A DNA stretch of 64,000 bases, taken from positions 1 through 64,000 of the forward strand of contig JALXBF010000069.1 in assembly GCA_026991575.1 (NCBI GenBank), given 5' to 3'. The translations under genes were made by a program, and so were the position numbers. Below the pieces are notes generated by a model. The model did not search any database. It was not told the origin of the DNA and saw only the letters and a program-made list of their open reading frames with translations. Below, one piece after another: positions 6,678 to 52,589 of this stretch. The first letter of the stretch is position 1. Each line of letters starts with the position of its first letter. This stretch comes from Planctomycetota bacterium (GTDB lineage: Bacteria > Planctomycetota > Planctomycetia > JALXBF01).

Positions 6678-6807
6678 CGCTCAAGAGGGAGTGGCTTCAC
6701 CTCGAGAAGACGGCACGCAGCAAAGTAGTGGCGCGAGCCAGGTAGCGGACTGTGACGTTTCACACCGTCGCATCCCGGGTTGGCAGGTAGCGGGACCGGA
6801 AAGGACA

Positions 6808-13342: not shown

Positions 13343-14380
13343 ATGAAGATCCTACTGACCACCGGACCCGGCCTGTGGCACGAACCACGCGGTTACATTG
13401 TGGTAGTCGACATGTCGTCGGGTCGGGTGCTCGATTGCTTAGAATGGTTTCACACCGTGCACGAGGTCTCCCACAAAGGCGTAGCAGGAGCGTGGCGTGA
13501 TCGCGGCTGCGTGTACGCGGTGACGGAGAGCGAGGTCCTGAAGGTTGATTTGGCCCCTTTGCGCGTGGCGGCATGTGCGACGTATCGGTGGGCGAATGAT
13601 CTGCACCACGTATGCCTCGCGCATGGCGCCCTGTGGGTGTGCAATTCCGGGCTGGAATGCGTCGATGAGCTGCATCCGGGCACGCTGCGCCCTAAGAGGA
13701 CATGGAACCTAATGGAGTCCCATGGGCGGTCGCTGAAGGCTTTTACCCGGGTAACACTGACTGCTATACGGCGGAGTTGGCGTCGTGCCACAGGAGAACG
13801 AAACTACTACCCCCATCTCAGGCCGTGCGGAAGGGTACCGTACTACAGAAAGATGTTGTATCCTCGCCGGTTCCTAAATTGCGCCCAGAAACAAGGTGAC
13901 TTCCGGCGGGCTGATTTACGACCACATGTGCTTCATCCTAACCACTGCTATCCATACAACGGCGATGTACTCGTTACGGTGTTCGGCACGGGCGAGGTCG
14001 TGGGCTTGCGGTCTGGAACGGTAGTTGCCCGATGTCTGGGCAGGCCGCACGACGGTGTCGTGGCGGAGGAATCGCTGTACGTGACAGACTGTAGTGCAAA
14101 TGTCATTCGGGCCGTGCCCTTACGTGGCCGGCGCACGAGCGGGCAACGCGTATGGCAGATAACCAGTCGAATGGCGGAGGGATTCCTGAGAGGGCTAATT
14201 GTGTCGGAGGACCACTTCTGGGTAGGACTGAGCGCGCGGAGGGGCGCACCTGACCATCTGCAGATGGCTAGAGTCATCCAGGTGGACCGGAGAACGGGGC
14301 GCTGGGTTCGCGAGTGGCGGCTCCCGCGTAAGTACGGGACAGCGGTATTCTCGCTGATAGACGTGTCCGACGTGTACTAA
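13343..14380 (+). CDS. Hypothetical beta-propeller protein (DUF4915/TIGR03032-like)
   Basis: 'NDLHH', 'HPNH', 'PHDG' and 'FLRGL...WVGLS' repeats; purine-rich RBS upstream. Confidence 0.6.
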   Translation: MKILLTTGPGLWHEPRGYIVVVDMSSGRVLDCLEWFHTVHEVSHKGVAGAWRDRGCVYAVTESEVLKVDLAPLRVAACATYRWANDLHHVCLAHGALWVCNSGLECVDELHPGTLRPKRTWNLMESHGRSLKAFTRVTLTAIRRSWRRATGERNYYPHLRPCGRVPYYRKMLYPRRFLNCAQKQGDFRRADLRPHVLHPNHCYPYNGDVLVTVFGTGEVVGLRSGTVVARCLGRPHDGVVAEESLYVTDCSANVIRAVPLRGRRTSGQRVWQITSRMAEGFLRGLIVSEDHFWVGLSARRGAPDHLQMARVIQVDRRTGRWVREWRLPRKYGTAVFSLIDVSDVY

Positions 14381-14439: not shown

Positions 14440-15370
14440 AATGCGTTTCAGGGACCTTGAGGGCGTGCAAAGCTGTCTGCCGCCGAAGGGCAATGCGCGA
14501 ACGGACCTCGCAGGGCCGGTTTGGCATCGGTCCTTCCTAAGGGAGGTGTCGAGGGGCGGTTCCAACCGTCGGCAAACTGAGTACCCATTGGGTGGGCATC
14601 GGCCCCCAAGAGCGGGGCCGGCGCTGGGGGCGTGCGCTTGGCTGCTGGGGATCTGGACGGGCATCCGGCGTCGCATGCGCTGAGGGTAGTAGTGGCAGAC
14701 CCTGGCCGCCCGTTGATGAGGTAGCCAACAGGGACAGAACCCGAGAGTGATTGAGGCGGTGGGCTAAGGTTCCAGTGTTTGCGGCGTTGCGCATGTTGCT
14801 GCTGGCGTTGTACGCGGAGCGTAGTTGGGCGCGGCTGCGTCGACGTGGGATCGTCCGTAGCGTGTTGCCGGCGCGATTGGGATGCTTGGGCGGCGCGGCT
14901 AACCCGACGGACCGTGGGGAAGAGGGGACGAAGATGTCCGTGGCGGTGGACAGGTCAGGTTTGGTGTCGGGTCTGCGTCTAAGTAACGCAAGCATACCGG
15001 ACTCGAGGTTGTGATCCGATTCCACCTCATTGGGCGATGCGTTGCCGGAGTTAGCCGGCCCCTCGTTGAGGTGTCGGCCGGGCGCAGTAGCCGGCCTGGG
15101 CTGATCCCGAGAGAGCCGTACGGTTGGGACCGTGGACGTGTGGAAGAAACCGGATGGCGGTTCATGCCACACTTCGCTAGGCCGTCCGCGGCCGCCCTCT
15201 GCGTGCCAAGAGAGGTCGTCGGCTAGCACCCACTTCCGAACGGGTCGCGGCGGGGCCGAAGTCTTTCCTGCGACTGTGCGGGTGTTGGGCCGGTAATCGG
15301 CGCTGCAATCTAGCGCATGTTGCCCGTGGTACAGGCCGTATCTGCTACGCGACTTCCCAATAGGTCGCTC
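14440..15370 (+). mobile_element. Degenerate IS5-family transposase remnant (pseudogene); boundaries approximate
   Basis: Fragments in several frames: 'YPLGGHRP..WTGI', 'RRWAKVPVF', 'NPTDRGEEGTKMSVAVDRSG...LSNASIPDSRL' (cf. NPTDRGKxGTKxHxxVDxxG...ANxHDS) and 'SFLRLCGCW...ICYA*' ending at 15363. Confidence 0.75.
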
Positions 15371-15647
15371 GGCACGGTCGCTCTCAGTCACGCTTGACAG
15401 GGGATGGCACGATGTGGCTGACTCGTCCGTTGATAGTGTCCTGATTGTGGCTAAAGTCAGGTGGCCCGGTATCCCAGATCCGTTCGGTGAGACTCAGTAG
15501 GCCATCCATGAACTCAACGCATCTGCTCGCACTGCTGGATGACCGGTATGTCTGATCGGAGATGGAAACGCCGAAAAGAGTCTACGGTACAGTGTCCGGC
15601 CCTTTCGTGGCGGCCGGGCGGAAGGGGGCTCGCACCGGGAAGGGTAG

Positions 15648-16586
15648 TTGCTACGCAGGCGTGAGGACGCTTCGCTGGGTGCGCGTTCACGGTGCGAACG
15701 CGGTGCCTCTGTGTGTTTGGCGATGCCGCGATCTTCTACCACGAGAGCTGGCGCGCGGGAGGCGGACTCGGTGGCTTGCGCTGCAGGTGATTGCCGAAGG
15801 CCTGATGGTCGAACCGGTGGCCAGGGTGGCGCCAGGCCGGGGCCGGGTCGAGGGCGCTGGAAGGCGCGGCGCTGGGTCCTGTGGTTACCGAGAAGCTGGG
15901 TTCAGTGGCTACGCAAGAGGTACTACGTGTGGCAGATCCATCGCGGTAAGTTCGACGCCGATGAGCCAGCGTATCACGTCCTCACCCACTTAATCGGGCC
16001 CGGCGATGTGGTTGTCGACGTCGGCGCAAACGTCGGCCGCTACACCATCCAGATGGCAAGGCTTGTTGGACCAAGTGGCCACGTCATCGCTATCGAGCCA
16101 GTACCAGAAACCGCCGAAGTGCTGCTGGCCAACGTCCGCAGCGCTGACCTTCATCAGGTTACCATCGTGCAGGCAGCAGTCTCCGACCGCATCGCTGTAG
16201 CGCAGCTTCGAATACCAATTCAGGATACCGGCTTTGCGGCACACTATTTCGCCCACCTCGTTGATGTCGAAGACCAGCCAAGCCACGAGGTGATCCCGGT
16301 GCTGTGCTGCACCGTCGACAGCCTCGTTGGGAAGCTTCCGGTGAAGCTGGTCAAGATTGACGTTGAAAAACACGAAGACCGGGCCTTGCATGGCATGAGC
16401 CGTACCCTCTCCGACACACGTCCATTTGTCGTGATCGAGCCAAGCGAGCGGAACACGTATGAGCTCTTCAAAGCGTTCGACTATGACGGCCGCTGCCTGG
16501 CCGGGTCCCAAGACTGGCTCTTCTGGCCGCGCGAACAGTCGTCGCTAGCCTCTGAGGCTTTGGCTCGCCTGGGTATCGGTTCGTAG
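15648..16586 (+). CDS. FkbM-family methyltransferase; start uncertain (15723 or later)
   Basis: 'VVVDVGANVGRYT', 'IAIEPVP', 'AAVSD', 'VKIDVEKHE' and 'RPFVVIE'. Confidence 0.88.
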   Translation: MLRRREDASLGARSRCERGASVCLAMPRSSTTRAGAREADSVACAAGDCRRPDGRTGGQGGARPGPGRGRWKARRWVLWLPRSWVQWLRKRYYVWQIHRGKFDADEPAYHVLTHLIGPGDVVVDVGANVGRYTIQMARLVGPSGHVIAIEPVPETAEVLLANVRSADLHQVTIVQAAVSDRIAVAQLRIPIQDTGFAAHYFAHLVDVEDQPSHEVIPVLCCTVDSLVGKLPVKLVKIDVEKHEDRALHGMSRTLSDTRPFVVIEPSERNTYELFKAFDYDGRCLAGSQDWLFWPREQSSLASEALARLGIGS

Positions 16587-16813: not shown

Positions 16814-19800
16814 ATGACGCTCCGCTTTGCCGAATTGACGGGCGATCGTAGTCCATTGCACGTCGACCGCCAGTACGCGCAGCGCGCGGCGTACGGACGA
16901 CCGGTCGTCCACGGCATGCGCGTCGTCCACGAGATGCTCGCCGTACTTGCGGCACACGTGTGCTCACGTCACCACCAAACCGCTCAGCAAAGCCGCCACG
17001 ACCTGCTACAGCCGACGACACCGCCAGGTGCCCCGACGCCCGGGAACAGTTCAGAGGACGCCGGCAAACGACATGTGTCCGCGCCTGGGCGTCCAGTGAT
17101 GACGGCAACCGGGGCAATCACCGTCGAATTCCGCAACCCCGTGTTCCCCGGCGACCGGCTACGCATCAGCTGGTCCCGGACCGGTTCGGCCACCGCTGCT
17201 GGAGGACCGTCCGCGCCGGCTACCGGCGCTACGGCCACACCCAACGTACACACCCATGGCAGGGAAGCGGTCCAGAACATGGGGCAGGCATCAGGTGCGT
17301 CGGAACTTCTCGACCAAAGCGACAACAACAGCTTGGGGCAAGCCAGTAACCGCACATGCCCCATCCACGACGACTTGTCCGCGTATACCTTACGTGGTGT
17401 CGCTGAGACAGAACGAGGTATCGCGGCGGTTGTCGAACTAAGTGTTCCTTACGATACCGAACTGGCCCGGAGGGCAGCCTCGGCGAGAGAAGCTCTCCGC
17501 CCCGTCTACGTGACGCTGGCTGAGCCAGCGGCTGATCCCCAGGGAGCAGAGCAATCGGCCACGTTTAACGACGGTGCGCCAAGCGTCCATCCTCCCGAAG
17601 AGGTCAACCGCCTTGACATCGACGACATCCTACTCGATGAGCCAGTCAGGGGCACCTACACGTATCCGGGCACCTCGGCCGCTGACTTAAGACCCGAATT
17701 GCTAACACTCCTGCGGCTCCTTGGACTGTGTAGCTACCTGGTTGGCATGAAGCTGCCGGGCCAACAAGCGCTCTTCGTCAAGGCTCAACTTGAATGGCAC
17801 GCGCTGCAGCACAACCCGCTAGAGGTTCCACTCCACTACGAACTTACGCCAACGCACGTTGATCGAAAGCTTAGACTGGTCGATTGCGCGCTCCTGGTGC
17901 GCACTGCCGACGGTGAGCAGGTAGCCACAGGAAGGCTGCGCAGCTACGTGCGATTCACGCCGGCGGTCCCGAACGTGGCAGCCGTTGTGGGGTATGCGCG
18001 TGATCTGTCCAACGCGCTGAGCGGCAAAGTTGCGCTTGTCTGCGGCGCAAGTCGGGGGCTCGGGGCTGAGATTACCGCGACCCTCGCGCTGGCCGGCGCC
18101 ACGGTGTACGGCACCTATCGATCGAGCAGCGAAGATGCGAAGTCTCTGGCCTCGGCTATCACCCAGCGCGGCGGAAGAGTAGAGCTGCTACAGGGCGACG
18201 TCGGTGATTCGCGGTGGCTCAACGACGTTGTCGAAGGAATCGTCCACAAACACGGGCGTCTGGATCTGCTCGTCCTCAACGCCTGTGGTCAACCGAAGAT
18301 CGGCGCCACCGGCGATGCGTTCCACGACTACCTGACGCGGAACCTCCAGCTCGTCTCCGTGCCGTTGGAGACCGCTTTGCCGGCCTTGCGGCATAGCCGC
18401 GGTGCGGTTTGTCTGGTCTCGTCCAGCTTTGTTGCGCAAGCACCGCGCGGCCTGGAAGCGTATGTGGCTCTAAAGAAGACTGCCGAAGAGCTCATCCGAG
18501 CCCAGGCTTCGGCTGCGCCAGAGGTCTTCTTCCAGATCGCCCGTCCTCCGAAGCTTCAGACCCGCTGGAACGATTCCCCCGCTGGCGTCGTCGGCGCGAT
18601 TCCTTCCTGGTGTGCGGCCGTCGCCATAGTGCAGGGGCTCGCAGCGCAGGCTGACCACCGCGAAGCACCGCGCGACAACGTCCTTGTGCTCGAGCAGTTC
18701 CCGTTGCTCGAGCCGCGGGACGAAGCGGGCTCACGTAGGACAGTATCCCTGGCGATTGCGGCCACGTTCACTGCCGAACCGCTTGGCGAAGAGCTCAAAC
18801 GCTGGGCCCGCCGATTGGCTTGGCAGTTGGACGCGCGTTTCGCTGGTTACAACCAGGTGGTCCAGGAGTTGATCAGCCCGGTTGGTCTGTTCGCCGCCAA
18901 TCGCGACGGTTTGAACGTCGCTCTGGTACGCGTCCGGGATTGGCTGCGGGAACTGTCCGAAGAGGTAGGCAGTGACGCGCAACGATTGCAGGCTCACCTG
19001 GACGACGTAGGCAACCAGATCGTCCAGGCACTGGAGCAGTACGCGGCGGCGGGACGAGCCCCGCTACTGCTTATCGTTGCCCCGTCTGACCTTCCAAAGG
19101 CCACCCCGGCTGACGAACCGATAGCCCGATGGGAGCGAGAACTGATCGCGTGCGCGGAGAAGCTCCGCGCGGTGCACGTCCTTGACGCCAGGCAGTGGCA
19201 CAGCGTATACGGACTGGACACCGCGGATGCAGCTGCCTACTACGACCGCAATCGAGACCGAATTGGACACATCCCGTTCACGCCGTCGTACTACGCGTTC
19301 CTGGCGACGCTGATTGTCCGGCGTGCTTATCGGCTGCTAACGCCTCCGCGCAAGACGATCGTCGTCGATTGCGACAACACGCTCTGGGACGGGGTCGTCG
19401 GAGAAGTTGGCCCGCAGGGTGTGCGATTCGACGAGCACCATCTTGCTCTGCAGCGCAAGCTCGCGCGCCTGGCGGAGTCAGGCGTACTCGTGTGCCTGTG
19501 TAGCAAGAACCAAGAAGACGACGTCTGGGCCGTGTTCGCTCAGCGTGCGAACGAGATGCCGTTACGTCGCGAGCACATCGTCGCGGCTGCCATTAACTGG
19601 ATGCCCAAGTCGCAGAACATCACCGAGCTCGCGCGTAGCCTGAACCTCGGACGCGACAGCTTTGCGTTCCTCGACGACAACCCGGTCGAGTGCGCAGAGG
19701 TGCGCGCAAACTGTCCGGATGTGCTCACGGTCCAATGGCCGCGCGAGCCCGAGCAGGCCCTGAAGCTGCTCAACCACTTCTGGGAGCTCGACCCGCTGGC

Positions 19801-22800
19801 GGCCACAGCGGAGGACCGCAAGCGGACGGAGATGTACCGGCAGGAATTCCAGCGCCAGCAACTGAAGGCGCAAGCGAAAGATTTCGCCGATTTCCTCCGG
19901 TCTCTCGAACTCAAACTGGACTTCCGCCCGTTGAACCGCGAGGATTTGCCGCGCGCCTCGCAACTGACACTACGCACCAACCAGTTCAACTTCACCACAA
20001 TCCGCCGTAGCGAGGCTGAACTCTGGGAGCTCGTCGCCGAGCATGGGTACCGGTGCTGGACAGTACGCGTATCGGACCGGTTCGGGGACTATGGAATCGT
20101 CGGCCTTGTCGTTACCAAGCCGATCAGCGACGCGAGCGACCAACGTGTGCTTGAAGTAGACACGTTCCTGCTGAGCTGTCGCGTGCTCGGTCGTGGCGTC
20201 GAACATAAGATCGTAGCGTTCCTAGCGGAGCAGGCGCTGGCGCTCGGGGCTGAGTACCTAAGATTCCACATTCGCTACACGAAGAAGAACGTCCCGGCGA
20301 GACGGTTCCTGCAGTCGATCGTACCAGCGGAGTGCCTCGAGACCGGCGACGACCACATGTCTTGCATCCTGGAGGCTCGCCGCTACGTTGACCTCAGCTA
20401 CGATCCAGAGCGGCACGCGTGCGAGTCAGAAACGGCCGACGCTCGCTCTGGGACCGACAACCGCGGAAGCGGGGAAGATGGCGGTGCCGAAGACGTCGTG
20501 ACCTGGACGCGTGAGCGTGAACGGCAGATTCTTCGGACCGCTTTCGAGTGGGCTGATCTCGGGAGGGCGAACAGCTCCGGGCAAACCGCCGTCGCCCAGC
20601 AACAACACGAGCCGGCCCCCGCGGGCGCTGCCACGACCGGCGAGGTCCGCCACGTTGTCCTTGATGCGTTTGCCCGGCAACTGGGGATGCCGGCCGAGCA
20701 GGTCGCGCGCGTTGATCGATTGGACCAGCTGGGGTGTGACTCGTTCAAGATCGTCGAGATCACCGTTGCTTTGCTTGAGCGATACCCGCAGCTGCCTGCC
20801 ACGCTGCTGTTCGAGCATCAGACGGTATCGGAGATAGTCCGGGCAATTGAGTCGCACTCTGCCGGCAGTAGTAGCCGCCAGCCGTCTGCTCCTCTGGCTG
20901 CGGCGCGACCGAGGGCTCGTACCGTCAGCGACATTGCCGTGGTCGGTCTGGCATTGCGTTGCGCCGGGGCGAATAGCACTGAGGAGCTCTGGCAGCTGCT
21001 TCGCAGGAAGGGGAGCGCCGTGCGGGAGGTGCCTACCGACCGGCGCCATTTCCTCGGGGTGCTGAGGGATTCGCGGAAGCACTGGGCCGGCCTGCTCGAT
21101 GATCCGGACCGGTTCGATGCCACGTTCTTTGGTATCGCGCCACGCGAAGCCGTCATGCTCGATCCCCAGTTGCGTCTGCTGCTGGAAGTCTCATGGGAAG
21201 CGCTGGAGCAGGCAGGATGGACCGACGGCACAGAGATCGCCAACACTGGCGTGTTCGTGGGGGTCATGTACGGAGACTACGTCTTCGCAGCTAACCAGTG
21301 GGCCGAATCGCAGGCGTACCCGTACCGCTGCTGGGAAGGGTTCAGCATTGCCAACCGCCTGTCCCAGATTCTGGGATTCCACGGCCCCAGTGTCGCGGTC
21401 GACACGGCCTGCTCCTCTTCGGGAACGGCGCTTTACATGGCGTGCCGTGCGCTGCGAGCCGGGGACTGCAAAGCCGCCGTCGTCGGCGGTGTGAACCTGA
21501 TCCTTGATCCCAACCGTTTCAGCCAGCTGGGACGCCTCGGTATCTTGTCCCCCGATGGTCGCTGCCGGCCGTTTGGAGAAGAGGCGAACGGAACGGTACT
21601 GGGCGAAGGAGCCGTCGCGCTTGTACTGATGCCGGTTGATGAGGCTGTTAAGCAGGGTTGCACCATACTGGGTGTGATCAAGGGGGTGGGCATCAGCCAC
21701 GGCACCGGCACAGTCGGTTTCACGGCTCCTAACCCGACAGCGCAGGCGATTGCGATTCGCGAAGCGATTAGAGCGGCGGGAATCGATCCGAGAACCATTT
21801 CGTTTGTCGAAACGCACGGCACCGGAACAGCATTGGGTGACCCGATTGAGACACGAGGACTGCAGCTGGCGTACGAGGATCGCTCACTGTGGTGCGACGA
21901 GGAGCTGGCCGACGCCGCGCCCCTGCGGCTCGGTGCGATCAAGCCGAACGTCGGCCACCTGGAGGCCGGTGCCGCGTTAATCGGTGTAGCCAAGGTTCTC
22001 TTGCAGTTTCAACACCAAGAGCTCGCTCCCACGATCACCTCGGAGCGGCCAAATCCTCAGGTTCCCTGGGACCGTACCCGATTTGTTGTTCAACGTGACC
22101 GCGCCCCGTGGGAGCGGCCTCGCCTGCGGTGCAAGGATGGAACGGTGCGAGAGTTCCCACGCCGGGCCGGAGTCAGCTCGTTCGGCGTTGGCGGTGCGAA
22201 CGTGCACGTTGTGCTGGAGGAACCGCCGAGTGTGGCTCTCGAACAGCCGACGCACGACGAGCCGGACCGGACGTGGCACGTCCTGGCTCTTTCGGCACGT
22301 AGCCCCGAGGCCCTTCGTGCCTATGCCGGCAAGGTTGCTGAGTTCCTCCGCCGTACGACCGACGACCAGATGGCCAACGTTTGTTACTCGTTGGCCGTCG
22401 GTCGAAGAGCGTTCGAGTACCGGCTCGCGCTGCCCTGTCGTTCGGCTGACGACGCACGTCGAACTCTGGCTGCCTTTGCAGAAAGTGGTGAGCTCCGAGC
22501 AGGCCACACAGGACGCACCGCCGGACAACGCCCGCGGGTGGCGTTCCTGTTCACCGGGCAGGGAGCCCAGTACGTCTCGATGGGCAAGGGACTGTACCGA
22601 TCGAACCCAGTGTTTCGGCGCGCACTGGACCGATACTTCGCGCTGGTCAACGAACACCTTGATCGTCCGCTACAGGAGGTTGTGTTCGGCGAGGATGACG
22701 AGCTTCTCAAGCAGACGCGATACACCCAGCCGGCGCTCTTCTGCGTGCAGCTTGCCCTGGCCGATCTGTGGCGAGGCTGGGGGGTTGTGCCTGACATCGT

Positions 22801-25800
22801 GTGCGGGCATAGTGTCGGTGAGATTGCCGCGATGGTGGTCGCCGGTGGTTTGAGCCCCGCGGACGGTGCCCGACTGGCTGCAATTCGAGGCCGTCTGATG
22901 GGTGAGCTTCCGGCAGGGGGGACAATGGCCGTGGTGGCGGCACCCGAAGCGGTCGTCCGTGGAGTGCTCGCATCAGGAACATGCATCGCCGCGGTAAACG
23001 GTCCACGGCAGACGGTTATCGCCGGACCGGTAGAAGCTGTCGACCAAACCGTGCGCCAGCTGGAAGCCTCCGGCCACAAAGTGACCAGGCTCCCGGTGTC
23101 GCACGCGTTTCACTCGTCGCTGATGAAACCGATCTTGGGACCGTTCCGCGAGGCGATTCGGGATATCCGATTCCATGCTCCAAAGCTGACCTTCGTCAGC
23201 ACTGTGACTGGGGCTGTCGCCTCAGAGGAACTTACCGATGCCCAGTACTGGGTGGACCAGATCCGGCGGCCTGTACGCTATGCGGATGCCGCGCGCACGA
23301 TCCTTGAGATGGCCGACGTCTGTTTGGAGATCGGTCCACATCCGGTCCTGGTCGGACTCGCACAGACACTGCCGGAAGCGTCCGGCAAGACCTTTGCTTC
23401 TAGCTTGAGGCGTCAGCGCGACGACGAGGCGGTCGTGGCCGACGCGGTTGCCGCCCTGTTCGCGGCAGGCATGCCCATCGACTGGCGCGGCTGGGACGAG
23501 GGGCGAGCACGGCAACGCGTGCAAGTGCCGAGCTATCCGTTCCAGCGAAAGCGGTACTGGATCGGTGCGGTCCCCACGGTCTCGTGCTCCGCGGCTGAGG
23601 AGAGCACCGAACAAACCATAGAACTGGAGACGTACCGACTCGATTGGATCCAAAAGCAACTTGATCCCGGACAGAATCCAGCACAGGTCCTGGTTGTTGG
23701 GACCGGGCAGGAAGCCACGAAGGCTCTCGCCGCCTTCGATTCGGCCGGGATTCCGTGTGCGCACGCGTCCTCGCTACGTGAGGCCGATGGCTCCGAAGCT
23801 GAGCGCTGCCTTGTGCTTGATTTCCGGGCATTGGATAGTGACCTTTCGCCCCAGAGTTTCCCGCAGTTCCTGGCCCGTCTGGCCACAGAACTGTGTGACC
23901 TGCAGCGCCGTTGGAAGGGCCGCAACCACAGTTACTGGCTGCTGACCAAGAATGCAGTCTGCGTCGGGTCGGAGCGTCTGGATCCATGTCACAGTGCCTT
24001 GTGGGGCTTCATGCGTTCAGCAATGCTTGAGTTGCACGACGTGGCCCTCGGCGTGGCGGACGTCTGCGCCGACGGCTGGACCGAGGTGGCAACCGCTCTT
24101 GCCTCGGCCGGTGACGAAGACCAGCTGGCGTTCCGCAATGGCGACGTGTACGCTGTCCGTCTGAGACGCTTTGAGCTGCCGGACAATGCGCAGCAGCCCG
24201 ACGTCGATCCGAACGCCATTTACCTTATTACCGGTGGTACCGGATGGCTGGGTGGTGCGATCGCAATTGAGCTGGCCAGGCTTGGGGCGCGGAAGATATG
24301 GCTCGTCAGCCGCCGCGGATTGGTCTCCGAAGGCGTTCTCGAAGAGCTACGGCGGCTCGGGGTCGCCAGCGAAGATGTGCGTGTCGTACGAGCTGACGTA
24401 GCATGTCCCGACGCGGTGCGTCGACTAGCCGATGAGATCCGTTCCGCTGGGGCCCGGCTCGGCGGCATTGTTCATGCGGCCGGCGTTGATCGGCCCACGT
24501 CGCTCAGCAGGCTCCAGGCGGACGATGTGGCGGCCGTCTGGGCGGGCAAGGCAACTGGTGCATGGCAGATTGCTGAGCTTGCGCGCGAGTTCCGGCCAGA
24601 CTTCGTTTGTTTCTTCTCCTCGCTGGCGGCGGCCGTGGGGGCTGCCCGTCGCTCCCACTATGCGGCAGCCAACGCCTTCCTGGACGGTCTCGCCTGTCAG
24701 CTGCACAGCGAAGGCATTCGGGCCACGTCGCTGGCATGGGGGCCGTGGGTTGGTGGTGGCATGGCTGACGCTGGGACGCTGAAGGAGTTTGCACGCATAG
24801 GTAACCTGGCGATTGGCCGGGACGAGGGAACTGGGCTGTTTAGCAAAGTGATCGCGCAGACGACCGTGCCCGCTCACATCGTGGCCGCACGCATTGACTG
24901 GGCACGCTTCGCGCCGGCCTACGAGCTGGTCAGAACTCGTCCGATCATCGAGCTCCTGCGGCCGGGCCCGGTTGCTTCCGGTCAGCGGACCGCGTTTGAC
25001 CGCAGCGCCGTCGAGCGAATCGTGCGCGAGGAATTCGCCCGCGCCCTCGGCTACAACAACGCCGACGCGATCCGTCGAGACGCGGAACTGCTCGCGCTCG
25101 GACTCGATTCGCTCCTCGCCGTGGACATCCTCACGCGGCTTCGCAAGCGATTGCCTCTGCCAGCGGGATTGTCGCTGTTCGACTATCGGACGCTGCACGA
25201 CGTGGTTGACGCGATTGCCGCGTACGCAGTGTGTACGGAAGCGGCGCCTGCGGGTGCGCCGCCTCAGTCCAATGCCGAAGTGCTCGACATCCTTCGCCGT
25301 GCCGCGGCCGAGACCCTTGGACTCGATGTCGAGGCGGTCGCGACGGACCGGCCGCTCAGTGCCCTTGGCATGGACTCGCTGATGGTTGCGGACTTCCTGA
25401 CCCGCGTGCGCAAAGCCACAGGCCGGTCCCTGTCGTCGTTTGCTCTTGACCGGGACACACTGAGTGAACTGGCGGAACAACTGTCCGCGGATGGTGAGAA
25501 GAGCCGCTCGACCGGCCGACCCGCAACACCATCGGGACGAGCCGTCCGGTACCGGCCGGAACTGGAGCCGGCCATCTACTCGTTCTGCCGGGAAGCATGG
25601 CCCGATCGGGCTCCTGAGCTGATCCCCGCGCGCTGGCGTTGGATGTTCGTGCAGTCGGCGCAGCGCCTGGGTATCGATCCCGCGGTGTGGCTTTATGTTG
25701 AAGATGGCCGGGTGCTGGGCCACAACGGAGCCATCCCCGTGCGTCTCCAGGTCGGTGACCGCGAGGTCACCACAGCCTGGTTTGTCGACACGATGGTCCT

Positions 25801-26659
25801 GGAGGAGGCTCGGGACAGAGCCGTCGGTAGCGCGGTCATGCTGGCATCGGTCGCGGACTGGCCGTTTAGCCTTTCGCTGGGTCAGACGCCGTACATGCGT
25901 GAGATTCTTCGTCGGCTGGGCTGGAAAGACGTTTGTCCGCTGAACACGTATGTGTACGTGCTTCGTCCGATGGCGTTGGGCAGAGCGAAGGTGACCACAC
26001 CGATCGTCGGAACACTGGCCGGAGCAGCGCTGGCGTTGAAACAGTGGTGGCACGGGCACCCGGTAGCGAACGGACATTCGCGGGCTTTTCGCGTTGAAGA
26101 GGTGGCCTCCTACGGTCCGGAACAGGACGAGTTGTGGCAGCGCGTCCGGGCGCACTTCCCGGTTGCTGTCGTCCGTGACCGATCGTTTATGCAGTGGAAG
26201 TACGTGGAGCAGCCGGGCCAGGAGTTCATCCGCTTGCACCTGTGGGACGGGGCTCGTTTAGCTGGGACGGCGGTCCTGCTTGTGCGGAGACCGGACCGCG
26301 TCTACCGATATCGCCGAGCGTTCTTGGTTGACTTGCTTGTCGATCCGGATGATGAGGTGGCCGTCGGTGCGCTGCTATCCGCAGTCATTGCGCGGGCTCG
26401 CCAGACCGGCTCGGCGCTCCTGACGTGTTACCTCACCTGTCCGCGGCTGGAAACCTGCCTTGTGCGTGCGGGATTCTGGCGCCGTGAGCCCCAGCGATAC
26501 CTGCTTGTGCGTCCGGACCGGGCAGAGGTTGACGTCCGTCTGCTCCTTGACGGCAGGCAGTGGCTGCTGACCATGGGCGATTCGGATATCGATCGGCCGT
26601 CGTGGACAGATGAAGAGCTGGATCCCTCCACGGCCCGGTCCACAGCGGTCGGCCTGTAG
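16814..26659 (+). CDS. Single-module type I PKS, 3281 aa: MaoC-like hotdog - SDR - FkbH - ACP - KS - AT - KR - ACP - ACP - GNAT
   Basis: MaoC 'FAELTGDRSPLH..VVHGM'; SDR 'GASRGLG', 'YVALK' (~18020-18640); FkbH 'DCDNTLW', 'DDNPVE', 'RTNQFN', 'SCRVLGRGVE' (~18740-20400); ACP 'GCDS' (~20740); KS 'DTACSSS', 'HGTGT', 'GHLE'; AT 'GHSVG', 'HAFH'; KR 'GGTGWLG', 'YAAAN'; ACPs 'GLDS', 'GMDS'; C-terminal GNAT-like domain (~25540-26610). Confidence 0.93.
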   Translation: MTLRFAELTGDRSPLHVDRQYAQRAAYGRPVVHGMRVVHEMLAVLAAHVCSRHHQTAQQSRHDLLQPTTPPGAPTPGNSSEDAGKRHVSAPGRPVMTATGAITVEFRNPVFPGDRLRISWSRTGSATAAGGPSAPATGATATPNVHTHGREAVQNMGQASGASELLDQSDNNSLGQASNRTCPIHDDLSAYTLRGVAETERGIAAVVELSVPYDTELARRAASAREALRPVYVTLAEPAADPQGAEQSATFNDGAPSVHPPEEVNRLDIDDILLDEPVRGTYTYPGTSAADLRPELLTLLRLLGLCSYLVGMKLPGQQALFVKAQLEWHALQHNPLEVPLHYELTPTHVDRKLRLVDCALLVRTADGEQVATGRLRSYVRFTPAVPNVAAVVGYARDLSNALSGKVALVCGASRGLGAEITATLALAGATVYGTYRSSSEDAKSLASAITQRGGRVELLQGDVGDSRWLNDVVEGIVHKHGRLDLLVLNACGQPKIGATGDAFHDYLTRNLQLVSVPLETALPALRHSRGAVCLVSSSFVAQAPRGLEAYVALKKTAEELIRAQASAAPEVFFQIARPPKLQTRWNDSPAGVVGAIPSWCAAVAIVQGLAAQADHREAPRDNVLVLEQFPLLEPRDEAGSRRTVSLAIAATFTAEPLGEELKRWARRLAWQLDARFAGYNQVVQELISPVGLFAANRDGLNVALVRVRDWLRELSEEVGSDAQRLQAHLDDVGNQIVQALEQYAAAGRAPLLLIVAPSDLPKATPADEPIARWERELIACAEKLRAVHVLDARQWHSVYGLDTADAAAYYDRNRDRIGHIPFTPSYYAFLATLIVRRAYRLLTPPRKTIVVDCDNTLWDGVVGEVGPQGVRFDEHHLALQRKLARLAESGVLVCLCSKNQEDDVWAVFAQRANEMPLRREHIVAAAINWMPKSQNITELARSLNLGRDSFAFLDDNPVECAEVRANCPDVLTVQWPREPEQALKLLNHFWELDPLAATAEDRKRTEMYRQEFQRQQLKAQAKDFADFLRSLELKLDFRPLNREDLPRASQLTLRTNQFNFTTIRRSEAELWELVAEHGYRCWTVRVSDRFGDYGIVGLVVTKPISDASDQRVLEVDTFLLSCRVLGRGVEHKIVAFLAEQALALGAEYLRFHIRYTKKNVPARRFLQSIVPAECLETGDDHMSCILEARRYVDLSYDPERHACESETADARSGTDNRGSGEDGGAEDVVTWTRERERQILRTAFEWADLGRANSSGQTAVAQQQHEPAPAGAATTGEVRHVVLDAFARQLGMPAEQVARVDRLDQLGCDSFKIVEITVALLERYPQLPATLLFEHQTVSEIVRAIESHSAGSSSRQPSAPLAAARPRARTVSDIAVVGLALRCAGANSTEELWQLLRRKGSAVREVPTDRRHFLGVLRDSRKHWAGLLDDPDRFDATFFGIAPREAVMLDPQLRLLLEVSWEALEQAGWTDGTEIANTGVFVGVMYGDYVFAANQWAESQAYPYRCWEGFSIANRLSQILGFHGPSVAVDTACSSSGTALYMACRALRAGDCKAAVVGGVNLILDPNRFSQLGRLGILSPDGRCRPFGEEANGTVLGEGAVALVLMPVDEAVKQGCTILGVIKGVGISHGTGTVGFTAPNPTAQAIAIREAIRAAGIDPRTISFVETHGTGTALGDPIETRGLQLAYEDRSLWCDEELADAAPLRLGAIKPNVGHLEAGAALIGVAKVLLQFQHQELAPTITSERPNPQVPWDRTRFVVQRDRAPWERPRLRCKDGTVREFPRRAGVSSFGVGGANVHVVLEEPPSVALEQPTHDEPDRTWHVLALSARSPEALRAYAGKVAEFLRRTTDDQMANVCYSLAVGRRAFEYRLALPCRSADDARRTLAAFAESGELRAGHTGRTAGQRPRVAFLFTGQGAQYVSMGKGLYRSNPVFRRALDRYFALVNEHLDRPLQEVVFGEDDELLKQTRYTQPALFCVQLALADLWRGWGVVPDIVCGHSVGEIAAMVVAGGLSPADGARLAAIRGRLMGELPAGGTMAVVAAPEAVVRGVLASGTCIAAVNGPRQTVIAGPVEAVDQTVRQLEASGHKVTRLPVSHAFHSSLMKPILGPFREAIRDIRFHAPKLTFVSTVTGAVASEELTDAQYWVDQIRRPVRYADAARTILEMADVCLEIGPHPVLVGLAQTLPEASGKTFASSLRRQRDDEAVVADAVAALFAAGMPIDWRGWDEGRARQRVQVPSYPFQRKRYWIGAVPTVSCSAAEESTEQTIELETYRLDWIQKQLDPGQNPAQVLVVGTGQEATKALAAFDSAGIPCAHASSLREADGSEAERCLVLDFRALDSDLSPQSFPQFLARLATELCDLQRRWKGRNHSYWLLTKNAVCVGSERLDPCHSALWGFMRSAMLELHDVALGVADVCADGWTEVATALASAGDEDQLAFRNGDVYAVRLRRFELPDNAQQPDVDPNAIYLITGGTGWLGGAIAIELARLGARKIWLVSRRGLVSEGVLEELRRLGVASEDVRVVRADVACPDAVRRLADEIRSAGARLGGIVHAAGVDRPTSLSRLQADDVAAVWAGKATGAWQIAELAREFRPDFVCFFSSLAAAVGAARRSHYAAANAFLDGLACQLHSEGIRATSLAWGPWVGGGMADAGTLKEFARIGNLAIGRDEGTGLFSKVIAQTTVPAHIVAARIDWARFAPAYELVRTRPIIELLRPGPVASGQRTAFDRSAVERIVREEFARALGYNNADAIRRDAELLALGLDSLLAVDILTRLRKRLPLPAGLSLFDYRTLHDVVDAIAAYAVCTEAAPAGAPPQSNAEVLDILRRAAAETLGLDVEAVATDRPLSALGMDSLMVADFLTRVRKATGRSLSSFALDRDTLSELAEQLSADGEKSRSTGRPATPSGRAVRYRPELEPAIYSFCREAWPDRAPELIPARWRWMFVQSAQRLGIDPAVWLYVEDGRVLGHNGAIPVRLQVGDREVTTAWFVDTMVLEEARDRAVGSAVMLASVADWPFSLSLGQTPYMREILRRLGWKDVCPLNTYVYVLRPMALGRAKVTTPIVGTLAGAALALKQWWHGHPVANGHSRAFRVEEVASYGPEQDELWQRVRAHFPVAVVRDRSFMQWKYVEQPGQEFIRLHLWDGARLAGTAVLLVRRPDRVYRYRRAFLVDLLVDPDDEVAVGALLSAVIARARQTGSALLTCYLTCPRLETCLVRAGFWRREPQRYLLVRPDRAEVDVRLLLDGRQWLLTMGDSDIDRPSWTDEELDPSTARSTAVGL

Positions 26660-26696: not shown

Positions 26697-28532
26697 ATGT
26701 GCGGGATTGCGGGGCAAGTTGGGGTTGGCGTTGAGAAGGCCGCGGTAGAGCGGATGCTGACTTGCATCGTGCACCGCGGGCCGGACGACCAGGGGGTGTT
26801 CGCCGATGAAGGGATTGCCTTCGGCATCCGGCGGCTGAGCATCATCGACATTGAGGGCGGTAAACAGCCCGTTTCCAACGAGGACGGATCCATTCACGTG
26901 GTCCTCAACGGAGAAATCTACAACTACGTCGAACTCCGTCAGGAACTGCTCCGCCGTGGTCACCAATTCCGCTCCCAGGGCGATACCGAGGTCATCGCTC
27001 ATCTGTACGAAGAATACGGTGACCGCTTCGTCGATCACCTCAACGGCATGTTCGCCATTGCCCTGTGGGATAGCCGCAACCGCCGGTTGCTGCTTGTTCG
27101 TGACCGGCTAGGCAAGAAACCCGTGTACTGGTGCTACCAGGATGGCAGGTTGTGGTTCGGATCCGAGCTCAAGTGCCTGCGGGCCGTCGATGCCCCGGTG
27201 GGACAGACGGATCTCACGTCAGTGTACCACTACCTGGTCCTGGGGTACATGCCGCACCCGCACACGGTGTACACAAACGTCCGCCAACTGCCTCCAGGGG
27301 GGATGCTGGAGTACCGCGACGGGCATGTGCGGGTGGATCGGTACTGGGAGTTCCGAGCCAGCGTCCGTCAGTGGGACGAACGGGAGGCGGCGGAGCACTT
27401 GCGTGACCTGTTAACGGATGCGGTCCGCATACGGTTGCGCAGCGACGTTCCGTTGGGGGCCTTCCTGAGCGGTGGTCTGGACTCCAGCATCGTCGTTGCG
27501 CTCATGGCACAACTCAGTCCAGCGCCGGTGAAGACGTTCCACATCCGGTTCAGCGACGATCCGGCCCCGGAGCACGAGTATGCGCAGGCGGTGGCCGACC
27601 AATATGGGACTGAGCACCACGTACTGACGGTCACGCCGGAAAAGATGGACGTGCTGGACCGTATCCTGGACATGTACGACGAACCGTTCGGTGACTCGTC
27701 CGCCGTCCCTACTTGGTACGTGTCCGGGCTGACGAAGCAGTACGTCACGGTAGCACTTGCCGGTGACGGGGGCGACGAAAGCTTCGCCGGGTACAACCGC
27801 TACCGCGTTGCACTGCAGCGCCGCCGCCTTCGGCGGTGGATTGGGCCGGCGTGCCGGTTGCTTGGACCAGCTGTCTGGCATCTCACCCCGCACAGCTTCC
27901 CCGGCCGACGGATGATCCGTGCCCTCGGGATGGATGGATATCGCGAATTTGCTTCGGGTATGCCGGAACTTGAGACGCGTTGGCTATTGGGCCCGGCGCT
28001 TCGACCGGCTGTGAACGGCACGACGACATGGGAGGTGGTCCGGCGCGATATCGAAGCGGGGGATCCTACAGACCCACTGTCGCCCTTTACTGCGTTCGAC
28101 ACCAGGCGCTATCTGCCAGACGACATCCTGGTGAAGGTCGATCGCGCCAGCATGTCGCATGCCCTGGAGGTGCGTGCGCCGCTGCTGGACTACCGCGTGG
28201 TGGAATTTGCGGCGACATTGCCCGCAGAGCTGAAGCTCGACAATCGAGGGGGCAAGCGGCTCCTGAAGATTGCTTTCGGTGACATGTTGCCGGAAAAGGT
28301 GCTGGAGCCCCGGAAGCGCGGCTTTTCCGCGCCGCTGCGGGAATGGCTTGCGGGCGAGCTGGCGCCGATGATCGAATCGGATGTGCTCAACGGCATTCTG
28401 GTACGGGAGCGGCTCATCGATCGCGATGCTGTGCAAGTCCTCGTCGACGAGCACCGCCGTGGCCGCCGCGACCATCGGAGGATGCTGTGGCGCTTGCTGG
28501 TCCTTGCGCGCTGGCTGCGGAGGTTCGGGTGA
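26697..28532 (+). CDS. asnB: Asparagine synthase (glutamine-hydrolysing)-like amidotransferase
   Basis: N-terminal 'MCGIAG', 'HRGPDD', 'NGEIYN', 'RDRLGKKP', 'LSGGLDSS', 'GDGGDE' and 'KVDRASM..LEVRAP'. Confidence 0.95.
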   Translation: MCGIAGQVGVGVEKAAVERMLTCIVHRGPDDQGVFADEGIAFGIRRLSIIDIEGGKQPVSNEDGSIHVVLNGEIYNYVELRQELLRRGHQFRSQGDTEVIAHLYEEYGDRFVDHLNGMFAIALWDSRNRRLLLVRDRLGKKPVYWCYQDGRLWFGSELKCLRAVDAPVGQTDLTSVYHYLVLGYMPHPHTVYTNVRQLPPGGMLEYRDGHVRVDRYWEFRASVRQWDEREAAEHLRDLLTDAVRIRLRSDVPLGAFLSGGLDSSIVVALMAQLSPAPVKTFHIRFSDDPAPEHEYAQAVADQYGTEHHVLTVTPEKMDVLDRILDMYDEPFGDSSAVPTWYVSGLTKQYVTVALAGDGGDESFAGYNRYRVALQRRRLRRWIGPACRLLGPAVWHLTPHSFPGRRMIRALGMDGYREFASGMPELETRWLLGPALRPAVNGTTTWEVVRRDIEAGDPTDPLSPFTAFDTRRYLPDDILVKVDRASMSHALEVRAPLLDYRVVEFAATLPAELKLDNRGGKRLLKIAFGDMLPEKVLEPRKRGFSAPLREWLAGELAPMIESDVLNGILVRERLIDRDAVQVLVDEHRRGRRDHRRMLWRLLVLARWLRRFG

Positions 28533-28641: not shown

Positions 28642-29982
28642 ATGCGAATCCTGTTCATCTCCAAGTGGCATGTCCTCCCGGCGGATACCGGGGGGAAGAT
28701 TCGGACATGTCAGGTGCTGAAGGGGCTGGCACGGCGGCACGAAGTGCATCTGGTGTATAACACGGTCGGCAGACCGAATGCCAGAGGTCGCTGGGAAGGT
28801 AGGGCTCTCAGCGGCCATGGGTGCTCCTTCGGGCGCGACGCAGGCGGGCCTGGTGATGTACCCTCCGATAGTGGGTTCCTGGATGGCGTGCGCTGTCATG
28901 CGGTGCCGACCACGACGCCCGCGCAGCGTGACTGGCGGTACTGGCTAGCCCTGGGACGTAACTTCGTTCACCCGGCTCCTTTTAACGCCCACAAGGATCG
29001 CGATCCGGCCCTGATACGAGCGGTCAGCGAACTGTGCCACCGCCTGCAGCCGGACGTCGTCATCTGCGACTTCGTCCAAACGGCACTCAACTGCAACGGG
29101 ATCCACCACTGGCCCAGCGTGCTGTTCCAACACAACGTCGAGGCGGAAGTCTTCTGGCGACAGGCGCGGCGCGCCCCGAAAGGAACGTGGCGTGCACTGT
29201 TTGCCCTGCAGGCGCAGAAGATGCTCCGCTTCGAACGCGACATGGTCCGGCGGTTTGACGTGGTGGTGGCGATCTCCGAGCGAGACAAGGTTCTTTTCGA
29301 ACAGCTCTACGGCTGCCGGAATGTGTTCGTCATCGATACGGCCGTCGATGTCGAACGATACGCTGACGTTCGGCCGGATCGACGTTCAAGACGCGTGCTC
29401 TTCATCGGCGGGCTTGACTGGATCCCGAACCCTCATGGCGTTACTCACTTCTGCCGGCGCATCTGGCCTTTGATTCGCGCCGAAGTCCCGGACGCGACGT
29501 TCGAAATCGTCGGTCGCAATCCCGGACCGGACCTTGCCGAGGTCGTCTCCGGCATACCGGGTGTCACTTTGGTGGGCACGGTACCCGATACCCGGCCATA
29601 CCTGGCGCGGGCCGCCGTTTGCGTCGTGCCGCTGTACATGGGTGGGGGTACGCGGATGAAGATCTACGAGTATATGGCCCCCGGGCTTCCCGTTGTATCG
29701 ACTTCGCTGGGCTGCGAGGGGCTGCCGGTGCGCCATGGCGAGCACCTGCTGGTAGCCGATTCGGACGAGGCGTTTGCCCGCGCTGTCGTTCGGCTGCTGA
29801 GCGATCCGGAGTACGCACAGCGGATCGGGCAGCAGGCCGCCAGCTTCGTCCGACAGAATTTCGCAGCCGACGTCGCGGCCGTCCAGTTCGAAGGCCACCT
29901 ACGCCAGGCGATCCGGTTGTTCCGCGCAAGACGAACCGCGGAGAATAACCGTTCTGTGAAGGGGGCCAGCGCGAGGGCATAG
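28642..29982 (+). CDS. Glycosyltransferase family 4 (PEP-CTERM/EPS-associated type)
   Basis: 'PADTGGKIRT', 'QHNVE', 'GLDWIPN' and 'GGGTRMKIYEYMAPGLPVVSTSLGCEG'. Confidence 0.9.
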   Translation: MRILFISKWHVLPADTGGKIRTCQVLKGLARRHEVHLVYNTVGRPNARGRWEGRALSGHGCSFGRDAGGPGDVPSDSGFLDGVRCHAVPTTTPAQRDWRYWLALGRNFVHPAPFNAHKDRDPALIRAVSELCHRLQPDVVICDFVQTALNCNGIHHWPSVLFQHNVEAEVFWRQARRAPKGTWRALFALQAQKMLRFERDMVRRFDVVVAISERDKVLFEQLYGCRNVFVIDTAVDVERYADVRPDRRSRRVLFIGGLDWIPNPHGVTHFCRRIWPLIRAEVPDATFEIVGRNPGPDLAEVVSGIPGVTLVGTVPDTRPYLARAAVCVVPLYMGGGTRMKIYEYMAPGLPVVSTSLGCEGLPVRHGEHLLVADSDEAFARAVVRLLSDPEYAQRIGQQAASFVRQNFAADVAAVQFEGHLRQAIRLFRARRTAENNRSVKGASARA

Positions 29983-35587: not shown

Positions 35588-36025
35588 CCGATCACGGGTC
35601 CAATCGCTGGTCGGATCGATCAGGCCAGCACCGCGCTAGTGCCCACAACCACAGGTCGTTTCTTCGGACGGCGCGGCAAACATCGAGCAGGATGTGATCC
35701 CGCTTCCCGCCGAATCGGGCGTGCGTATCTAGACCGTCGGATAGTCTCGATAAGCCGTAATCCTGTCCGGTGCAGCATCCCGATGGGCCGTTCGACCGGC
35801 CGCATGACCCGGCTCGGAAACGCTGCGGGCCCACAATTGTCTGGAAGGGTGGGATGCTGGAGCTGAGCTGAACTCGCCTCGGACGGGCCAGAGCGAACAG
35901 CCTGCGACGGCGACAGGGGGCCGGAGGGACGGGGCCGGCGAACGTCCGTCGAAGCAACCAATCCGGTCGGCGTGGAGGATGTCCCTCGCGGCGCCGGATT
36001 GGTAACGACATCTACGCTGCGTTGG

Positions 36026-36056
36026 CCCGCTGGTCGCGCCACCAGCGGGTTTTTTT
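36026..36056 (+). terminator. Rho-independent terminator
   Basis: CCCGCTGGT-cgcgcc-ACCAGCGGG, a perfect 9-bp stem followed by T7. Confidence 0.8.
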
Positions 36057-36189
36057 GTGCGCGCCCGCGCCACCGACGGATTAGCTTTCTGCGCTCCGCG
36101 CCCCCCCGCGAGCGGCGGTGGGGCACCGCTGCGGGGTGGCGAAGAAATCTTTTTTGGTTGAGGGTGCCGCGGCGCTATCCATCAACCTT

Positions 36190-36220
36190 GCGGGAGGGGG
36201 GCATAAAGCCCCCCTCCCGC
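36190..36220. repeat. Perfect 13-bp inverted repeat (REP-like hairpin)
   Basis: GCGGGAGGGGGGC-ataaa-GCCCCCCTCCCGC; a related copy lies in inverted orientation at 36403-36420. Confidence 0.7.
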
Positions 36221-52582: not shown

Positions 52583-52589
52583 CGCCTGG

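Follow-up and report, generated by a model that had tools for sequence, protein, structure and literature searches.

A single-module polyketide synthase with an FkbH loader and a terminal tandem GNAT, candidate acyl-decorating enzyme of an exosortase-type exopolysaccharide locus in a Planctomycetota bacterium

Enzymes of the FkbH family load glyceryl from 1,3-bisphosphoglycerate onto an acyl carrier protein (ACP) and combine the DxDxT phosphatase motif of haloacid dehalogenases (HAD) with a conserved cysteine. Among polyketide synthases (PKSs), the DH*-KR*-FkbH-ACP loader (DH, dehydratase; KR, ketoreductase) of the bryostatin BryA-type trans-acyltransferase (trans-AT) assembly line has reportedly been proposed to deliver a lactyl starter. 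FkbH is described as a glycerate-activating loader (PMC4979870), and in a table accompanying a software tool the FkbH loading domain stands for the formation of D-lactate-ACP (PMC7901079). Two polysaccharide systems are also relevant: in Vibrio cholerae O1, the tetronate that N-acylates perosamine comes from the five-gene set VC0248-VC0252 (PMC3441752), and in the Caulobacter holdfast, sequential action of the deacetylase HfsH and the tandem GNAT protein HfsK on sugar amines has been proposed (PMC5362036). In the present study, we analyze a stretch of 64,000 nucleotides from a Planctomycetota bacterium (positions 1 to 64,000 of contig JALXBF010000069.1, assembly GCA_026991575.1; hereafter the window), which encodes a PKS carrying both an FkbH loader and a C-terminal tandem GNAT. 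We propose, with the balance for and against about even, that this single-module cis-AT PKS is the acyl-decorating enzyme of an exosortase-type exopolysaccharide pathway, in which a C5 hydroxyacyl chain would be moved by the GNAT to an amine, and that it is not the core of a stand-alone metabolite pathway.

The PKS is encoded by a single uninterrupted open reading frame (ORF), intact in the window at 16814..26659 (+), whose product counts 3281 residues. Profile searches with Pfam and NCBIfam give the domain order MaoC hotdog, short-chain dehydrogenase/reductase (SDR), FkbH, ACP, ketosynthase (KS), AT with an HAFH motif, KR, two ACPs and the C-terminal domain (Table 1). The Cys-His-His triad of the KS, the GHSxG motif of the AT, the KR tyrosine and the ACP serines lie on one polypeptide, as in modular cis-AT type I PKSs, and the HAFH motif denotes malonyl specificity. 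The FkbH region carries DCDNT at residue 852 and SCR at 1121 and exceeds the curated TIGR01686 cutoff. The Pfam listing of the ORF contains no thioesterase (TE), condensation (C), PS-DH or enoylreductase (ER; ADH_zinc) family at E <= 0.01, and because the PKS is devoid of a TE, the tandem GNAT is the sole release candidate. An earlier note, made by a model from the letters of the window, had listed the same domains in the same order together with their catalytic residues and had found the module free of TE, C, DH and ER domains; the profile searches and the motif reading agree with it throughout. Of 86 full-architecture proteins, 45 have the strict MaoC motif at a distance of 10-37 residues from the start, and most of the other 41 show x-D-x-N-P-[LIV]-H at the same N-terminal place. 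Since the motif sits near the start across the family, the N-terminus of the PKS looks natural and untruncated. A 604-aa antisense ORF inside the gene, 24425..26239 (-), is most likely a high-GC artefact.

The same architecture recurs well beyond this genome. Among 119 homologues listed for the whole protein, 85 have BLASTP matches to all seven segments tested (MaoC, SDR, FkbH, KS, AT, KR and C-terminal domain), and in these full-architecture homologues the C-terminal domain is 39-58% identical and reaches the last residue. The remaining 34 consist largely of actinomycete multi-module PKSs that match in KS/AT/KR alone, together with two N-terminally shorter forms. The few named homologues among the matches listed come from Allorhodopirellula heiligendammensis (P0100) and from a Desulfobacteraceae and a Vicinamibacterales metagenome-assembled genome (MAG); Luteitalea encodes a free GNAT (P0217), and both Allorhodopirellula heiligendammensis and Luteitalea are cultivable. 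The HAD and S-C-R motifs of FkbH are found in all 86 family members and HAFH in 84 of them. A profile of the tandem GNAT retrieved 375 clusters (50% identity) at E <= 1e-30 among 1.84 billion representatives, and in every long protein listed there the GNAT stands C-terminally, after the ACPs. A pattern scan restricted to one genome per species yielded 46 GNAT loci in Planctomycetota, Acidobacteriota, Gammaproteobacteria, Nitrospirota and Desulfobacterales, one of which (L046) is a 37-residue chance match; the closest relative (L001, 58%) is a Planctomycetota MAG. The domain is present in 2 of 4 genomes of an order-level sample. In a phylum sample of 401 genomes, with scoring confined to four candidates in each, 12 genomes pass E <= 1e-20, and the 11 matches beyond the window's own genome are weak and partial (76-99 bits vs 477); the domain is thus rare within the phylum, and the sample says little else. 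Given the 85 homologues with all domains and the 46 genome loci, the PKS is not singular and belongs to a conserved multi-phylum family. Two observations concern individual members. A 4489-aa protein from a eukaryote collection (P0112) carries GT2, UDP-sugar dehydrogenase and GlmS-like parts fused ahead of the same PKS and could be a real fusion, a contamination or a gene-model artefact. In two Nitrospirales genomes, transposases lie directly downstream of the PKS (L021:11731-13065 and L029:11136-12086 (-); IS256-family and IS3-family).

The C-terminal domain is the least conventional part of the protein at the sequence level. Its tandem-GNAT profile found no solved structure below E 0.5 among PDB sequences, and the domain matches no NCBIfam family at E <= 10, including the exosortase-associated N-acyl amino acid synthase TIGR03694. 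In Pfam, Acetyltransf_9 scores 27.2 bits on the isolated fragment (cutoff 25) and 23.0 bits on the whole protein. Fold searches were required because the sequence profiles of both this domain and the CE4-like protein described below gave no significant PDB match. The last 362 residues were aligned with 51 free-standing homologues and modelled with AlphaFold2 (AF2). The model (predicted local distance difference test, pLDDT, 90.9; predicted template modelling score, pTM, 0.89) is confident over 345 residues, with disorder only in the last 17, and shows two GNAT lobes in one domain, in the tandem arrangement of Eis and N-myristoyltransferase (NMT). Foldseek places protein N-myristoyltransferases at the top (NMT E 8e-14). 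In VIA-wide, a fold search independent of Foldseek and the source of all Z scores given here, Eis2 reaches Z 20.3 over 291 residues and yeast NMT Z 20.3 over 294 (9mva, 2p6e), followed by other Eis-like GNATs (Z 19-20), glucosamine N-acetyltransferases (Z 16.9-17.7), MshD (Z 15.0) and FemX (Z 12.0). The model thus bears out the GNAT-like C-terminus of the earlier note and refines it to a tandem fold with Z scores of about 20 to amine acyltransferases.

In GNATs, the loop after strand 4 binds the pyrophosphate/pantetheine arm of the donor. According to the alignment and the model, an R81-x-x-A-x-G86 loop (fragment numbering; the arginine is R3000 of the protein) follows strand 4 in the N-terminal lobe only. 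Near the C-terminus, the acidic motif G-D-S-D-x-D-R-P is invariant in the alignment with the free-standing homologues. In NMT and Eis, the C-terminal carboxylate serves as base; that the acidic tail plays this part here is speculation. The predicted model makes the C-terminal domain a tandem GNAT. Characterized members of this fold acylate amines from a pantetheine thioester, and we propose the same function for the domain. Because the domain is fused behind the PKS carriers, acyl-ACP is the expected donor.

The acceptor could also be an amino acid, a peptide stem or a protein N-terminus (a FemAB-added amino acid or a PEP-CTERM protein), so that the same chain would end up on an N-acyl amino acid or an acylated protein. 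The leading position of protein N-myristoyltransferases in Foldseek speaks for such an acceptor, as does the FemAB-family protein of the window, which passes its model cutoff and whose relatives abut a free GNAT in one locus (L012). A 2011 study by Craig and colleagues reportedly links N-acyl amino acid synthases with PEP-CTERM/exosortase loci. The GNAT nevertheless has no match at E <= 10 to TIGR03694 or to the rest of NCBIfam, the scores of Eis, MshD and the glucosamine N-acetyltransferases are about as high as that of NMT, and FemAB stands near the GNAT in only 5 of the 46 loci; we therefore hold an amino-acid or peptide acceptor to be unlikely and retain the amino sugar in our proposal.

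At the other end of the protein, the loader (residues 1-1350) is 30-38% identical, over 65-82% coverage, to the N-terminal parts of multi-module PKSs that lack ATs, from Stigmatella, Streptomyces and Teredinibacter turnerae. Since it is homologous to the heads of such enzymes, we assign it to the loader type compared with bryostatin, and the likening of the MaoC-SDR-FkbH-ACP loader to trans-AT loaders made beforehand holds at this level of identity. A motif scan of the 86 full-architecture proteins shows that the MaoC Asp/His and the SDR Tyr/Lys are kept across the family. This conservation favours processing of the starter, which, read from the motifs, would consist of a dehydration to the pyruvoyl enol followed by a reduction, and therefore favours the conversion of glyceryl to lactyl.

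The module might alternatively iterate with its tandem ACPs, or the glyceryl starter might be kept, so that the product would be an extended 1,3-polyol acyl chain or a trihydroxy-C5 acid. The PKS carries a pair of ACPs behind its KR, GxDSx motifs number three in 47 and four in 25 of the 86 family members, the module has no DH or ER, and the number of cycles is not fixed by the sequence. The conserved MaoC and SDR residues argue for starter processing, the loader is homologous to those of non-iterative assembly lines, and we found no positive evidence for iteration, so that these products appear improbable next to the single C5 hydroxyacyl chain that we favour.

The GNAT is not confined to PKSs. 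PKS-type loci account for 18 of the 46, and each of them has an ACP in frame immediately before the GNAT. In 20 other loci (L002, L003, L005, L006, L008, L010-L012, L014, L017, L018, L023, L025, L028, L030, L032, L036, L040-L042), a conserved and apparently unnamed full cassette of iron-containing alcohol dehydrogenase (Fe-ADH), AMP-ligase, LuxE, LuxC and FabG-like SDR ends in a free GNAT, the cassette occupying about 6 kb upstream of the GNAT in most. L019 has the cassette with only the LuxE match missing, and three further loci cut by contig ends (L004, L007, L009) have the SDR upstream, so that an SDR stands directly upstream of the GNAT in 24 of 46 loci; L033, L034 and L037 show neither arrangement. 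The components of the V. cholerae tetronate pathway (ACP, AMP-ligase, Fe-ADH, LuxC/LuxE-like) presumably resemble this cassette. Neither a regular expression nor a profile built from the PKS ACPs detected a carrier protein in the cassette loci, the home-built profile being unclean in that it also matched stretches inside the FkbH region. With either supplier, the GNAT would draw its acyl group from a pantetheine thioester.

A quick maximum-likelihood tree of 44 GNAT sequences (L035, L044 and L046 were left out, their aligned piece being shorter than 280 aa) shows that partner labels are clustered, with 4 changes vs about 14 after shuffling and none of 500 shuffles as low. PKS and cassette partners nonetheless switched at least 2-3 times on this tree, as forced by its starred branches, and therefore do not form single clades. 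Because the same GNAT sits behind either a PKS or a Lux-type cassette, with repeated switches, the simplest reading is that it is a portable, swappable acyl-transfer module accepting the products of different upstream machinery.

Both types of loci share FemAB, AsnB, GT2/GT4 glycosyltransferases, Wzx, UDP-sugar dehydrogenase and the CE4-like protein. Among PKS-type loci, genes for PrsT and an exosortase lie no more than 5 kb from the PKS in L035, L029 encodes a FemAB protein at 379 bits, L022, L024 and L043 encode an XrtA-type amidotransferase (L022 and L043 also a UDP-sugar dehydrogenase) and L016 has stp-type GT4s. In the window, the genes around the PKS encode GT2 and GT4 glycosyltransferases, a PMT_2-like membrane protein, a Wzx-type flippase, two methyltransferases, an AsnB-type amidotransferase, an AMP-ligase and a FemAB-like protein. 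The single exosortase of the genome (PF09721, 230 bits) is found on contig C181 at 63456-64211, and TIGR03694 was not found in the genome. From this gene content, the PKS gene is placed in a probable exopolysaccharide locus of the XrtA/PEP-CTERM exosortase type. The earlier note had described the PKS as self-contained, which does not stand, given this locus and the free-standing occurrence of the GNAT behind another acyl supply; its suggestion of an amino-sugar acceptor fits a polysaccharide locus, the acceptor itself keeping the status of a proposal.

Two PKS-type loci, in a Desulfobacterales MAG (L013) and a Nitrospirales MAG (L027), have a DltB-like MBOAT and not the usual exosortase-type markers; it is encoded just downstream of the PKS (L013:12302-13732, L027:14142-15584 (-)), and L013 also has two PaaK-like AMP-ligases. 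These two loci would suit a PKS that makes a free small molecule, its GNAT acting in regulation or in release by hydrolysis and the adjacent polysaccharide genes being unrelated to it, and so would the missing TE, which requires another form of release, and the fact that a fold does not prove transferase chemistry. This explanation is less probable still than an altered acceptor or chain: polysaccharide genes recur beside the PKS in several phyla, the same GNAT occurs in polysaccharide loci that have no PKS, P0112 joins GT2, UDP-sugar dehydrogenase and GlmS-like parts to the PKS, and the top fold matches are all acyltransferases. GNAT-like domains of PKSs are known as loading-module decarboxylases (PMC10006239; table in PMC7901079). 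That the GNAT here is a CurA-type decarboxylating or chain-initiating domain is very improbable, since a loading GNAT of that type is a single GNAT placed before the first ACP in an N-terminal loading module, whereas here a tandem GNAT of Eis/NMT type closes every long homologue among those listed, behind two ACPs, and a separate N-terminal FkbH loader is present.

From the domains, the fold, their conservation and the gene context, we infer the following chemistry for the proposed decorating enzyme. By family knowledge, FkbH would move glyceryl from 1,3-bisphosphoglycerate to the first ACP, where, by analogy with DH*-KR*-FkbH-ACP loaders, the MaoC dehydratase and the SDR would turn glyceryl-ACP into lactyl-ACP, a glyceryl starter being possible. 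The KS and the malonyl-specific AT would carry out one extension, and reduction by the KR would leave 3,4-dihydroxypentanoyl-ACP on the tandem ACPs, or 3,4,5-trihydroxypentanoyl-ACP from a glyceryl starter. The tandem GNAT would bind the pantetheine-bound acyl group in its N-terminal lobe and pass it to a free amine, most likely on an amino sugar of the polysaccharide or of its precursor and possibly exposed, in some loci, by a CE4-fold deacetylase.

Such a protein (unk410) is encoded in the window 3.6 kb downstream of the tandem GNAT. Its ORF opens at 30066, and homologues place the likely start about 56 codons downstream, near 30234. It has no Pfam family (Polysacc_deac_1 included) and no NCBIfam family; its profile reaches E 0.054 to the Mycobacterium smegmatis deacetylase 3rxz among PDB sequences, and the ESM Atlas gives, as a lead only, polysaccharide deacetylase clusters (score 0.94). 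An AF2 model from 10 sequences (pLDDT 79.8) matches HP0310 (3qbu; Z 23.4), 3rxz (Z 22.9; Foldseek E 4e-10) and ArnD (Z 19.0), and D15, H86 and H88 are invariant in the alignment. The NodB/NodA pair follows a remove-then-reacylate logic, and by analogy a de-N-acylase beside an N-acyltransferase suggests the same here. An obligate deacetylase/GNAT pair was considered and dropped on finding unk410 homologues in one of five PKS-type genomes. The coupling is therefore not general: it is supportive for the window alone and lies outside the core system.

Several points weigh against the proposed role. The exosortase lies on another contig than the PKS locus, and the AsnB-type and stp1-like proteins of the window score below the curated XrtA-system cutoffs (610 vs 816.9 and 187 vs 316.65, respectively). 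The search for phosphopantetheinyl transferases (PPTases) in the genome found the AcpS type only, a 138-aa frame on contig C181 (91008-91289) about 27 kb from the exosortase, and detected no Sfp-type enzyme. Homologues of unk410 stand near the GNAT in only 10 of the 46 loci, and a whole-genome profile search finds one in only one of five PKS-type genomes. Because no carrier protein was detected in the cassette loci, the free GNATs may use acyl-CoA from the AMP-ligase and not acyl-ACP. The choice of a lactyl over a glyceryl starter is made by analogy. The fold that the modelled GNAT shares with acyltransferases does not prove transferase activity, and among its top matches are protein N-myristoyltransferases, enzymes that modify the N-termini of peptides and do not act on sugars; together with the FemAB neighbour, this leaves some small room for the amino-acid or peptide acceptor discussed above.

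Table 1. Domains of the PKS and genes of the surrounding polysaccharide locus, with positions in the window
Feature	Position	Strand	Evidence and remarks
MaoC-type (double) hotdog dehydratase, low-complexity inserts, catalytic D11/H16	16814..17998	+	PF01575 MaoC_dehydratas, residues 4-48 and a second stretch; 52 bits on N-terminal fragment
Loader SDR ketoreductase	18026..18511	+	PF00106 adh_short, residues 405-566; Gly-rich loop at 411 (G411-x3-G-x-G), Y550-x3-K554
FkbH domain, residues 846-1169	19349..20320	+	TIGR01686, 318.2 bits (cutoff 146.65); HAD D852-x-D854-x-T, S-C1122-R
Loader ACP, Ser1310 in GCDSF	20636..20848	+	One of three PF00550 stretches, and motif
KS, residues 1373-1742, C1533/H1668/H1715	20930..22039	+	PF00109 and PF02801, E 1e-72
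cis-AT, residues 1911-2204, GHSVGE with S2000, H2097-AFH	22544..23425	+	PF00698 Acyl_transf_1, E 5e-64
Module KR, residues 2468-2645, catalytic Y2616	24215..24748	+	PF08659, E 2e-51
Tandem ACPs, Ser2766 and Ser2855 (GLDSL, GMDSL motifs)	25016..25480	+	PF00550
C-terminal tandem GNAT, residues 2920-3281, proposed off-loading N-acyltransferase; final 17 residues disordered	25571..26659	+	AF2 model, Foldseek, VIA-wide
GT4 glycosyltransferase, upstream part of polysaccharide locus	5298..6677	+	Pfam, NCBIfam
Wzx/MOP-type flippase	11027..12550	+	PF13440, NF007773
FkbM-family methyltransferase, adjoins PKS upstream	15648..16586	+	TIGR01444, 91.9 bits; near GNAT in 0/46 loci
AsnB-type glutamine amidotransferase	26697..28532	+	PF00733; best model XrtA/PEP-CTERM TIGR03108, 610 bits, below cutoff 816.9; homologue nearby in 12/46 loci
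GT4 glycosyltransferase, stp1-like	28642..29982	+	TIGR03087, 187 bits, below cutoff 316.65
CE4/NodB-fold deacetylase-like protein (unk410)	30234..31298	+	AF2, VIA-wide, Foldseek; no Pfam/NCBIfam match
AMP-dependent ligase	31575..33071	+	PF00501; TIGR03098 weak match
FemAB-family XrtA/PEP-CTERM system-associated protein	33264..34349	+	TIGR03019, 326.7 bits, above cutoff 260.35; near GNAT in 5/46 loci
GT2 glycosyltransferase	34373..35587	+	PF00535

Other genes of the window deserve a brief mention. The polysaccharide locus contains a 789-aa fusion of a zinc-type alcohol dehydrogenase with a GFO/IDH/MocA oxidoreductase, 6646..9015 (+), and 2 of 46 loci have a homologue of this fusion close to the GNAT. 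Four ORFs in or beside the locus, 36996..40325 (+), 13343..14380 (+), 14537..15391 (-) and 35972..36736 (+) (1109, 345, 284 and 254 aa, respectively), have no significant Pfam or NCBIfam family, the second having a sub-threshold DUF4915 match only. Farther downstream are a ComEC-like gene, 44628..47135 (-), and a DUF1501 and PSCyt2/PSD1 (DUF1549/DUF1553) gene pair, 51125..55436 (-), typical of Planctomycetota.

Each part of the PKS comes from a known family, and it is their combination, with a tandem GNAT ending a PKS, that appears undescribed. A full-text search of the literature (MIBiG being outside its scope) found no description of an FkbH-loaded single-module PKS with a terminal GNAT, in keeping with the earlier remark that the architecture is unmatched in characterized pathways, nor of a PKS inside an exosortase polysaccharide locus. 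We advance more tentatively, at somewhat less than even probability, the broader proposal that the tandem GNAT represents an unrecognized class of PKS chain release, from ACP to amine, which places polyketide-derived polyhydroxyacyl groups on exosortase-system exopolysaccharides and which, being portable behind at least two unrelated acyl suppliers (FkbH-PKSs and Lux-type cassettes), provides tailor-made N-acyl decorations in at least five phyla. If this is true, GNAT-mediated ACP-to-amine transfer would join TE, reductase, condensation-like and KS-like release in the PKS repertoire, and assembly-line polyketide synthesis would be tied to the decoration of exopolysaccharides in environmental bacteria, whose exosortase/PEP-CTERM systems are poorly understood. 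Such loci would enter the counts of genome-mining tools as orphan type I PKS clusters, and viewing them as polysaccharide-tailoring loci changes both their counting and their priority. Under the same proviso, a loader, a module and a transferase in one protein would make an attractive tool to put small hydroxyacyl groups on amines.

Set beside the described systems, the PKS shares with the bryostatin BryA-type trans-AT loaders the order hotdog dehydratase, SDR, FkbH and ACP. Those relatives head long trans-AT assembly lines with macrolide-type products, whereas the present loader shares its polypeptide with a single cis-AT module, which would perform the only extension. The C-terminal domain has the two-lobed GNAT fold of Eis, NMT, MshD and the glucosamine N-acetyltransferases (Z 15-20 over 250-297 aligned residues) at only 7-16% sequence identity, and it differs from them in being covalently fused behind PKS carriers, so that one would expect it to take the chain from acyl-ACP instead of acyl-CoA. 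The exosortase-associated N-acyl amino acid synthases of TIGR03694 are single-domain enzymes that handle long fatty acyl chains, and the GNAT domain here has no sequence match to them at E <= 10. As in the Caulobacter holdfast system, a CE4-fold protein and a tandem GNAT are encoded close together, 3.6 kb apart in the window; HfsK is however FemX-like and free-standing, FemX reaching only Z 12 against the present model, and the CE4 partner is missing from four of the five PKS-type genomes searched. The closest chemical precedent is the tetronate N-linked to perosamine in V. cholerae O1: that pathway has no PKS and no FkbH, yet there too dedicated genes in a polysaccharide locus make a small hydroxy acid that is N-linked to an amino sugar.

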